Sequence record: NZ_LT960778.1
DNA: 31,701 bases
Reading direction: 5' to 3' (one strand)
DNA from: a plasmid
Notes under the pieces: model-generated
Told to the model about the DNA's origin: nothing
Database searches by the model: none
What the model saw: the letters and a program-made list of their open reading frames with translations, nothing else
Program-made: the position numbers and the translations under genes
Shown here: positions 19,568 to 20,494 of the stretch, piece by piece
Numbering within the stretch: the first letter of the stretch is position 1
Layout: the number at the start of each line of letters is the position of its first letter

Positions 19568-20494
19568 ATGGACTATTTATACTACAAAGCAATTAACTGG
19601 GATGATATTAAAGATAATTTCGATAAATACATGTGGGAACGACTCACCACTAACTTTTGGTTGGACATTCGGATTCCCATCACGAATGATCAAACGGATT
19701 GGCAACAGCTATCAGATACTCAACAACAGGCCATTACTCGTATGTTGGCAGGTACATCAATGTTAGCCGTCTACCAATCAGAAGTTGGCACCCCTGCTAT
19801 TCGCCACGATCGGAGAACTCAACAAGAAGAATCCGTATTAAACACCATTACCTTTATGAAATCAGTCCATGCCAAAAGCTGTACGACCATTTTTCGGGCT
19901 CTGATTCCGGGTAACGATGGTGGAAGTTTTACTTGGGCAGATGATAATGCCAATCTGCAAGCTGAAATTGACCAACTAGCCCAAACGAGCACTAGCGATA
20001 TGGCCTTACAGAAAAAAGCCCTTTTTATTCTGACTGAAACTGGGCTCTCGTTTGGTAAATACTGGACAATACTTCAAACACAGGATCTCGTCAATACTTA
20101 CCAAATGTTGGCTAATATTCTCCGCGGTAGCGCCCTTTTTAGTGCTTATATTGGTTACAAATTTCGCCTCAGATTTGAAGAACTCACTGTAAGTGATCAA
20201 ACCGAACTGCAGTATTGGATTAATACACAGTTTGATCAACTCATGCAAACTGAAAAAGACTTCTTAGAAGCTAACCTTGACGATGCCACCGAAGCCATCA
20301 ATCTGGCCTCCTATGGTGCCAATCATGCATTAATGTCACTTGGCTTTAACGCTGTCTACGAAGTTCAACCGTCTTCACTAGTGGCGCAACTCAAAGAACT
20401 GATGATTGACCAAAATCAATTTTTGCAACAGGTAACGGCTTCAAACAATGAATCGGACACTGAAAAAATGACCGATAACGACTACGACTTTTAA
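19568..20494 (+). CDS. Degenerate NrdF-like R2 paralog lacking most di-metal ligands and the radical tyrosine
   Basis: It aligns without gaps to the downstream NrdF. It shares the class Ib C-terminal tail (...DYDF, the R1-binding peptide). It reads MKSVHAKSC where NrdF reads MESIHAKSY (Glu to Lys, Tyr to Cys). It reads LRGSALF where NrdF reads IRDESVH (Glu to Ser, His to Phe). It reads MLAVYQ where NrdF reads LLDTLQ (Asp to Ala). Confidence 0.7.
   Translation: MDYLYYKAINWDDIKDNFDKYMWERLTTNFWLDIRIPITNDQTDWQQLSDTQQQAITRMLAGTSMLAVYQSEVGTPAIRHDRRTQQEESVLNTITFMKSVHAKSCTTIFRALIPGNDGGSFTWADDNANLQAEIDQLAQTSTSDMALQKKALFILTETGLSFGKYWTILQTQDLVNTYQMLANILRGSALFSAYIGYKFRLRFEELTVSDQTELQYWINTQFDQLMQTEKDFLEANLDDATEAINLASYGANHALMSLGFNAVYEVQPSSLVAQLKELMIDQNQFLQQVTASNNESDTEKMTDNDYDF

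Follow-up and report, generated by a model that had tools for sequence, protein, structure and literature searches.

A conserved and apparently radical-dead R2 paralogue beside the canonical NrdF in a class Ib ribonucleotide reductase operon of lactic acid bacteria

Plasmid record NZ_LT960778.1 (31,701 nucleotides (nt); in its whole length referred to here as the window) is a mobilisable plasmid of a lactic acid bacterium, and it carries four plus-strand genes of a class Ib ribonucleotide reductase (RNR) in the order nrdI-nrdE-nrdF'-nrdF. The first of the two adjacent genes for the R2 (beta) subunit, nrdF', encodes a protein (F') that keeps the R2 fold over its full length and has a degenerate metal/radical site, and the second encodes a canonical class Ib NrdF (F). 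F' seems to be a conserved R2 paralogue that is radical-dead and has so far gone unrecognised, and nrdI-nrdE-nrdF'-nrdF appears to be a distinct type of class Ib RNR operon that it defines. With somewhat more belief than doubt, we propose that F' is a non-catalytic beta' subunit, which would pair with NrdF and dock on NrdE; it would be an analogue of yeast Rnr4 that evolved independently. The usual picture of a class I RNR is an alpha2-beta2 enzyme with two identical radical-generating protomers, the yeast Rnr2-Rnr4 heterodimer being the best-studied exception. If the proposal is true, F' would be part of the first bacterial counterpart of that heterodimer, independently evolved and found in Lactobacillaceae and at least one Enterococcus, on chromosomes as well as on plasmids of food fermentations.

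Loss of the metal and radical site in F'

Ligands were assigned by residue-level alignment to the solved NrdFs 4n83, 3n37 and 1r2f, which include those of E. coli and Salmonella, and in two multiple alignments. The ligand motifs of F' and F align without gaps, pairwise as well as in the multiple alignments, and F carries all seven residues in question (six metal ligands and the radical tyrosine). F' retains two of the six ligands, H101 and E157 (in LTETG); the other four and the radical tyrosine (Y105 of E. coli NrdF) are gone (Table 1). The initial annotation of this DNA, made from the sequence alone, had claimed these five losses in the first copy and a complete set in the second, and the comparison with solved NrdFs confirms both, the ligands not being merely shifted on re-alignment. 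A further loss had gone unnoticed there: N293 occupies the position of the C-terminal radical-transfer tyrosine (GAGY in F), a residue of the flexible tail that is equivalent to Y356 of E. coli class Ia and relays the radical to the large subunit.

The fold is kept. F' scores 142.9 bits against PF00268 (cut-off 33.6), and its AlphaFold2 monomer model is all-helical (mean predicted local distance difference test, pLDDT, 86.5; predicted template modelling score 0.86), with disorder only at residues 1-9 (pLDDT below 50) and 291-308. The model matches NrdF crystal structures with template modelling (TM) scores of 0.83-0.91 and root-mean-square deviations of 1.6-2.5 A. The best solved relative is Streptococcus sanguinis NrdF 4n83 (E value 7e-51, 36% identity), and since this homology extends across the full length, the likeness to NrdF is not due to chance. 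F' and F are 31% identical (BLASTP E 2e-58). F passes the class Ib family model TIGR04171 with 431.4 bits (cut-off 355), scores 277.2 bits against PF00268 and matches 4n83 with E 1e-126; F' lies under every curated NCBIfam cut-off (188.7 bits for TIGR04171).

Docking of the R2 tail on the large subunit, R1, is established, for example in PDB 2bq1. The C-terminal peptide is the part of R2 that makes this contact (PMC6754363), and the F' tail is predicted to be a peptide of this docking type. Thus the earlier statement that the first copy keeps its length, its fold and the terminal DYDF stands, on the Pfam score, the structural model and the tail itself.

On the residues present, F' is predicted to be unable to assemble or hold a dimetal-tyrosyl cofactor, as had been proposed initially and as the family-level ligand data given below support. 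It is likewise predicted to be unable to relay a radical to NrdE, a conserved radical residue being absent and the tail tyrosine lost.

Table 1. Coordinates of the nrd operon in the window and of the altered or conserved elements of F'
Feature	Position	Strand	Description
Candidate promoter/operator (predicted)	16754..16799	+	Two NrdR-box-like imperfect palindromes, ACACCGCATATAGTGA and AACCACTATATATAGA, with centres 30 nt apart
nrdI	16828..17286	+	Flavodoxin-like activase, Streptococcus sanguinis NrdI type; PF07972, 108 bits; RefSeq coordinates
nrdE	17314..19461 (open reading frame open from 17293)	+	Class Ib catalytic alpha subunit; PF02867, PF08343, PF00317
nrdF' (beta')	19568..20494	+	ATG start; 308 amino acids; full-length R2 fold, predicted dead metal/radical site
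F' N-terminal arm, Y3-L-Y-Y-K-A-I-N-W11	19574..19600	+	Disordered in the monomer model
F' A67 (in MLAVYQ)	19766..19768	+	Replaces the Asp ligand (D67 of E. coli NrdF); from alignments
F' K98-S-V-H101-A-K-S-C105	19859..19882	+	Glu ligand replaced by K98, His kept as H101, radical Tyr replaced by C105
F' S188-A-L-F191	20129..20140	+	In place of E..H of RDExxH: Glu replaced by S188, His by F191
F' N293	20444..20446	+	At the position of the radical-transfer Tyr; from alignments
F' tail, E299-K-M-T-D-N-D-Y-D-F308	20462..20491	+	NrdE-docking-type peptide (predicted)
nrdF'-nrdF spacer	20495..20508	+	14 nt
nrdF	20509..21459	+	Canonical class Ib beta subunit; 316 amino acids; six ligands, Tyr102, tail Tyr, DYDF tail

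Conservation and stepwise decay across the F' family

We compared ligand positions in 14 F' proteins, their 14 partner F proteins and 17 solo NrdFs, together with two further proteins, P0048 and P0050, that occupy the same slot (nrdI-nrdE-X-nrdF) in read-archive assemblies (L094, 5470-6429, and L096, 6001-6948, respectively). All ligands, the radical tyrosine and the tail tyrosine are present in every partner F (14/14) and every solo NrdF (17/17). In the F' proteins, E192 and H195 are absent throughout (14/14), position 98 is Lys in eight and Glu in six, and position 105 is variously C, Y, A, V or I; all 14 retain H101, and 12 retain E157. LYYKAINW and TQQE, two signatures of F', are present in P0048 and P0050. 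These proteins fall with F' in neighbour-joining trees (96% bootstrap), and they have lost only D67 and the tail tyrosine, two residues that are absent from all 16 first-slot proteins; the other five ligands and Tyr105 are kept. These two proteins might, judging by their residues, still bind one metal ion. Because they lack only D67 and the tail tyrosine, the metal site of F' seems to have decayed stepwise, the predicted order being Asp and tail Tyr early, then Glu and His, and finally the radical Tyr.

Conservation in F' follows a different map from that of its active site. The arm, (Y/F)LYY(K/Q/R)A(I/V)NW, is invariant in 14/14 F', and the tail E.M...DY(D/Q)F (E299, M301, D305-F308) is conserved in all of them; an alignment of 21 F' sequences has 51 invariant columns, among them those of the entire tail and arm. 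Helix C (residues 85-112) is among the best-conserved parts, with the F'-specific, invariant or nearly invariant residues Q85, Q86, E88, T106, T107, F109 and R110. In helix B, G74 and P76 are well conserved, P76 being F'-specific and present in at least 90%, and Y194, Y197 and K198 are also among the most conserved residues. The least conserved part, residues 208-291, includes the segment NPIVMNGISTETANHDFFSQVGxGY, which is nearly invariant in canonical NrdF. This pattern suggests that constraint on F' has been lost where radical chemistry and radical transfer need it.

The same data bear on the idea that F' makes an oxidant itself, as a metal-free or otherwise unconventional radical subunit of a class I subclass beyond Ie. 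Conservation of H101 and, in most sequences, of E157 would fit such a subunit, and class Ie provides a precedent of NrdF relatives that are active without metal ligands (PMC11846895, PMC6176560). However, the variability of position 105 leaves no conserved candidate radical residue, the Asp that Ie needs and the tail Tyr needed for transfer to alpha are lost in all, and each operon examined also encodes a canonical NrdF (intact except in the decaying pnF1FD01 plasmid lineage described below), which makes this explanation very improbable.

Selection and phylogeny

Ratios of non-synonymous to synonymous divergence (dN/dS) were computed by the Nei-Gojobori method for three close pairs only, distant pairs being saturated at synonymous sites. 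They are 0.10-0.16 for F', 0.04-0.06 for F and 0.03-0.05 for NrdE; NrdI gives 0.08 in two pairs and 0.45 in the third, where dS is only 0.03. In neighbour-joining trees on Kimura distances, F' and partner F are each monophyletic (100% bootstrap), with the same sub-groupings and broadly congruent branching, and F' evolves about 4.3 times faster than F, as judged by mean pairwise distances of 0.99 and 0.23, respectively. F' is therefore under relaxed but clearly purifying selection and is co-inherited with its neighbour F. The initial annotation had argued for selection on a non-catalytic role, and the dN/dS values for orthologues of the first copy, its intact open reading frame (ORF), synteny in 15 lineages and the invariant tail and arm bear this out. 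Its description of a tandem duplication is right in the loose sense that the two R2 genes are adjacent; they are not recent duplicates, each being an old clade of its own, and F' is no closer to its neighbour F (31% identity) than to streptococcal NrdF (34-38%).

A functionless, decaying duplicate would agree with the faster evolution of F' relative to its neighbour, with the variability of the former ligand positions and with the one plasmid in which the copy is split. We find it scarcely credible, since the frame has stayed open in 15 lineages despite divergence to 29-40% identity, dN/dS is well below one in the range given above, the invariant columns span the arm and tail, and the fold is predicted confidently. 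Likewise, F' is not a pseudogene, a reading that we rejected because the ORF is intact, synteny holds in the 15 lineages, dN/dS is 0.10-0.16 and 57 of 60 plasmid copies, sampled across the identity range, have a full-length annotated F' coding sequence.

As a separate observation, synonymous divergence between the plasmid operons of the window and of Loigolactobacillus binensis (L014) differs gene by gene (nrdI 0.03, nrdE 0.85, F' 0.43, nrdF 0.08), which points to recombination breakpoints inside the operon.

Distribution of the operon type

A protein search returned F' relatives from 99% down to 40% identity, all from Lactobacillaceae where the source is named. Where DNA was available, the order nrdI-nrdE-F'-F is kept in 15 lineages, representing at least eight named Lactobacillaceae genera and Enterococcus lemanii. 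It holds in 13 of 13 F' lineages with DNA, with F'-F spacers of 9-41 nt: the window, Lacticaseibacillus pabuli, L. porcinae, Liquorilactobacillus hordei, Nicoliella lavandulae, Paucilactobacillus nenjiangensis, Loigolactobacillus binensis, Limosilactobacillus gorillae, Lactiplantibacillus plantarum 4_3, a Lactobacillaceae isolate, assembly GCA_966575005.1, one metagenome contig and E. lemanii. The operon is both plasmid-borne and chromosomal, several copies lying on chromosomal contigs of 1.4-2.5 Mb, and 165 plasmid records carry F', 163 of which cover at least 80% of it.

The other subunits also set the operon type apart. Its NrdE proteins are 73-95% identical to that of the window, as against 60-72% for solo operons of other Lactobacillales, and the corresponding values for F are 72-99% and 55-65%. 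For NrdI, identity is 53-97% within the operon type but no more than 23-31% towards NrdI from neighbouring solo nrdIEF operons.

When 1.84 billion cluster representatives were scanned with HMMER, scores at the F' level (337-474 bits) were confined to about nine full-length clusters at 50% identity; the scores then fall to about 230 bits, and P0048 and P0050 are two clusters that come just after this fall. A scan of a genome collection with the F' alignment yielded, among the matches listed, 76 ordinary NrdFs in 80 loci kept and four F' loci (L014, L015, L016 and L018); one of the two patterns used there, FM[KE]SVH[AT]K, also fits canonical NrdF.

A second, independent family of degenerate NrdF-like proteins was encountered in Limosilactobacillus (L009, 5552-6936; P0022-P0041 and P0134; largest cluster of 688 members). 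In these proteins the Asp is replaced by Ser, the first His by Ala, the third Glu by Thr and the second His by Ser; Tyr105, E98 and E158 are kept. They have no DYDF tail, ending instead in ...FKEIK, and pass the model NF007183, and the gene stands directly after nrdI with no nrdE between. This family may be another non-catalytic R2, paired with NrdI instead of NrdE.

A possible beta-beta' heterodimer

Class I RNRs show half-sites, asymmetric behaviour, which fits the proposal of a beta-beta' dimer. In the mechanism that we favour, F' would pair with NrdF through the normal R2 dimer interface, giving a beta-beta' heterodimer. In the resulting alpha2-beta-beta' holoenzyme, NrdF alone would be loaded by NrdI with the Mn(III)2-Y. 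cofactor and would deliver the radical, and F' would complete the dimer and contribute a second tail, anchoring the complex on the other NrdE protomer. Whether this clade of class Ib RNRs is an obligate asymmetric alpha2-beta-beta' enzyme, with one R2 protomer radical-dead from the origin of the clade onwards, we consider evenly balanced.

The sequence features that suggest pairing concern the presumed dimer interface. In Bacillus anthracis NrdF, N-terminal exchange between protomers is a main element of the dimer interface, and a helix-B proline nine residues after the Asp ligand lies at its core (PMC6754363). F' has P76 at exactly that offset from position 67. The F' arm is its best-conserved segment and is nevertheless disordered in the monomer model, which suggests that it contacts another chain. 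The arm of partner F is three residues shorter and variable, solo NrdFs keeping YY, and the partner F clade shows 32 fixed differences from solo NrdFs, many of them in helices A-C. Since the F' arm and P76 are constrained, the partner arm is shortened and variable, and these differences are fixed, we infer that F and F' pair. Co-inheritance of F' with F, the docking-type tail kept by all F' and the overlap of the nrdF ribosome-binding site with the end of nrdF' also speak for this reading. Among the specific roles named in the initial annotation (heterodimer partner, assembly chaperone or decoy), the evidence leans to the first.

Several observations weigh against pairing with NrdF. The interface argument takes its two features from what is reported of a single homologue, the NrdF of B. 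anthracis, and partner F keeps everything that a normal homodimeric NrdF needs, so that F' could be dispensable or act separately. Our trees are of the neighbour-joining, Kimura-distance kind, in which long-branch attraction could inflate the grouping of F' with P0048 and P0050. Furthermore, F' is split in two in plasmid CP120657.1, and in the pnF1FD01 lineage (about 86% nucleotide identity to the window) nrdI and nrdF are frameshifted, with nrdE and F' intact: in L. plantarum pnF1FD01 itself (NZ_CP025284.1, our locus L098), nrdI (763-1217) has one frameshift and the canonical nrdF (4442-5387) at least two. The plasmid-borne operon is decaying in this lineage, and together with the split F' this indicates that it is expendable in some hosts.

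The conserved tail could also belong to a decoy or regulator. Here F', as a beta'2 homodimer or a monomer, would compete through its DYDF peptide with NrdF2 for the beta-binding cleft of NrdE, damping or buffering activity and giving overall activity control to a class Ib enzyme that has no ATP cone. The docking tail is indeed invariant although the radical-transfer tyrosine is gone in 16/16, the conserved dimer elements would serve an F' homodimer just as well, and class Ib NrdE lacks an ATP cone (from its Pfam domains and PMC6572854). Yet F' is always co-transcribed directly upstream of nrdF, and producing an inhibitor at a constant ratio to its target would not regulate anything; moreover, separate homodimers would not predict the asymmetry between a fixed F' arm and a shortened, variable F arm. 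We regard a decoy as unlikely.

Less probable still is a scaffold, in which F' would bind NrdI (or Mn) transiently and help to load or protect the Mn2-Y. cofactor of NrdF, outside the working holoenzyme. Yeast Rnr4 is required for cofactor assembly in Rnr2, which counts in favour of such a role, as do the distinct lineage of NrdI in this operon type and the adjacency of the Limosilactobacillus degenerate gene to nrdI. In Mycobacterium tuberculosis NrdF2, the N-terminal basic residue Arg30 contacts and gates NrdI (PMC11470190). Of the NrdI-interface residues of that protein only the equivalent of Arg30, position 25, is informative here, Tyr202 being unconserved even in the canonical sequences of the clade; position 25 is Lys in canonical proteins but only 50% conserved in F'. 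In addition, the site-2 ligands E192 and H195, which the NrdI channel serves, are gone, and a pure assembly factor would not need an NrdE-docking tail, yet the tail is invariant. A heterodimer of F' with NrdF thus remains the reading that we favour.

The nrd operon and its neighbourhood

The TAA that ends nrdF' shares nucleotides with AAGGAG, the ribosome-binding site of nrdF, and we therefore expect the two genes to be co-transcribed and, probably, translationally coupled. The nrdE-F' spacer (19462-19567) is 106 nt in the window and its closest relatives, 169 nt in L. porcinae and 8-24 nt in most other lineages. The NrdE translation contains the NLCSEI motif, the tyrosine pair of SLYYIRT and the C-terminal CESCMI motif, and it matches PDB 9l6o and 1pem with E of about 1e-240; the nrdI product passes NF002714 (193.4 bits, cut-off 190) and matches PDB 4n82 with E 8e-45. 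The operon has no nrdH gene.

Upstream of nrdI, the two palindromes ACACCGCATATAGTGA and AACCACTATATATAGA bracket a TACAAT hexamer resembling a -10 element, as read from the sequence. They resemble the NrdR box consensus, as judged by eye, and the region is likely to be the promoter/operator of the operon. The approximately 1.2 kb from 15642 to 16828 hold no ORF of at least 80 amino acids, and an Rfam scan of the window gave zero matches; therefore, no riboswitch accounts for the long leader upstream of nrdI.

The 5' end of nrdI is unusual. Between 16800 and 16860 there is no canonical in-frame start before the flavin mononucleotide (FMN)-binding loop ILYISLSGNT: the RefSeq start is ATA at 16828 (the L. 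pabuli copy was given ATT by another gene caller), the first in-frame ATG, GTG or TTG is the TTG at 16849, where a start would delete the FMN loop, and the ATG at 16809, which is out of frame, leaves a gap of just 2-3 nt to the GGA of a putative ribosome-binding site. In nrdI orthologues at greater distance the start is normal, ATG-MSKQVNILYISLSGNT. The odd 5' end could reflect very weak translation of NrdI, a frameshift or a remodelled 5' end in the plasmid lineage of the window.

Latilactobacillus sakei plasmids match the region 16400-21600 at 99.9% identity, and about 160 plasmid records contain most of it. Other genes of the plasmid encode ParA, two RepA proteins, the MobA relaxase, a resolvase, ClpL, copies of the insertion sequences (IS) IS6 and IS30, Dps and a bacteriocin exporter. 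An IS6 copy (14329-15012) precedes nrdI by about 1.8 kb, a distance that includes an unrelated 141-amino-acid minus-strand ORF, and an IS30-family transposase (21600-22528) follows directly downstream of nrdF, so that the nrd genes lie between IS elements. The IS30 transposase is split into two overlapping ORFs (200 and 125 amino acids) and is probably a frameshifted copy. On the minus strand at 28514-30372, a gene for a 426-amino-acid protein with a SMODS nucleotidyltransferase and an AGS-C sensor domain overlaps a 192-amino-acid ORF on the same strand (29794-30372) by 4 nt; this two-gene cassette looks like an anti-phage module of the cyclic-oligonucleotide-based signalling (CBASS) type. The 201-amino-acid ORF at 8456-9061 is a gene fragment, its match to the bacterial DNA topoisomerase domain being confined to the central part of the profile (positions 102-291 of 411).

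Comparison with known R2 proteins

We found no description of a bacterial beta' of the F' type in the open-access full-text literature or bioRxiv, although absence there is not proof; the initial annotation had likewise known of no described class Ib beta-prime subunit of this kind. F'-like sequences are not mentioned in a 2021 review whose sequence network comprises over 31,000 beta subunits, and one plasmid paper names the two genes nrdF and nrdF2 without comment. Hundreds of plasmids and genomes of lactic acid bacteria carry genes of this type under the name of an ordinary beta subunit, with 'metal ion binding', which makes F' relevant to annotation; for RNR classification, the operon type would be a new one. 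If beta' is disabled and yet retained, the system would offer a simple, genetically tractable model of why one beta suffices at a time, and, if our proposal is true, a test of what the second protomer and tail contribute, be it anchoring, cofactor assembly or stability. The stepwise series of F' proteins also records the decay of a metalloenzyme site after its function was lost.

The closest match of F' in sequence and structure is canonical class Ib NrdF, as in S. sanguinis (4n83), with which F' shares length, helices, the kind of tail and operon partners (TM 0.83-0.89). F' differs from it in the loss of four of the six ligands, the radical Tyr and the transfer Tyr, and fails TIGR04171.

Class Ie NrdFs, of the VPK and QSK types, occur in Mesoplasma florum, Aerococcus urinae, Streptococcus pyogenes and Gardnerella; they keep the Asp, both His, the Tyr (converted to 3,4-dihydroxyphenylalanine, DOPA) and the transfer Tyr, and replace the three Glu by V/Q, P/S and K (PMC11846895). 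They are working beta subunits and often the sole one (PMC11846895). Like F', they are class Ib-derived beta proteins with substituted ligands, encoded with nrdI and nrdE, and their TM score to F' is about 0.8. In F', however, the Asp, one His and the tail Tyr are gone, as is Tyr105 in most cases; the Glu at the P/S position of Ie is still there, and a canonical NrdF always stands beside F'. We rejected class Ie identity on the ligand pattern (A67 and F191; K, E and S at the Glu positions; C105), in agreement with the earlier view that the first copy is not a DOPA-type R2. R2lox was also rejected, as it keeps its ligands and has no tail.

A lineage-specific second R2 without the radical-forming Tyr stands beside an orthodox R2 in apicomplexans (PfR4, the R2_e2 clade; PMC3824934). 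That clade is eukaryotic, of class Ia descent and not operon-linked, and beyond the shared superfamily we compare it with F' by description.

The closest parallel in kind is yeast Rnr4, which, like F', is an R2-fold paralogue that has lost metal ligands, forms no cofactor, is kept under selection beside a catalytic R2 and has a C-terminal R1-binding tail. F' is a degenerate-site R2 paralogue under purifying selection beside a catalytic R2, and in this it resembles Rnr4; the heterodimer would complete the likeness. Unlike Rnr4, F' is bacterial, operon-encoded and of independent origin, its best matches being bacterial class Ib NrdFs, and the Rnr4 chain 1jk0_B is not among its PDB matches at E <= 0.001. 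Decay has also gone further in F' than in Rnr4: most lineages lack the radical Tyr, and every one lacks the transfer Tyr.

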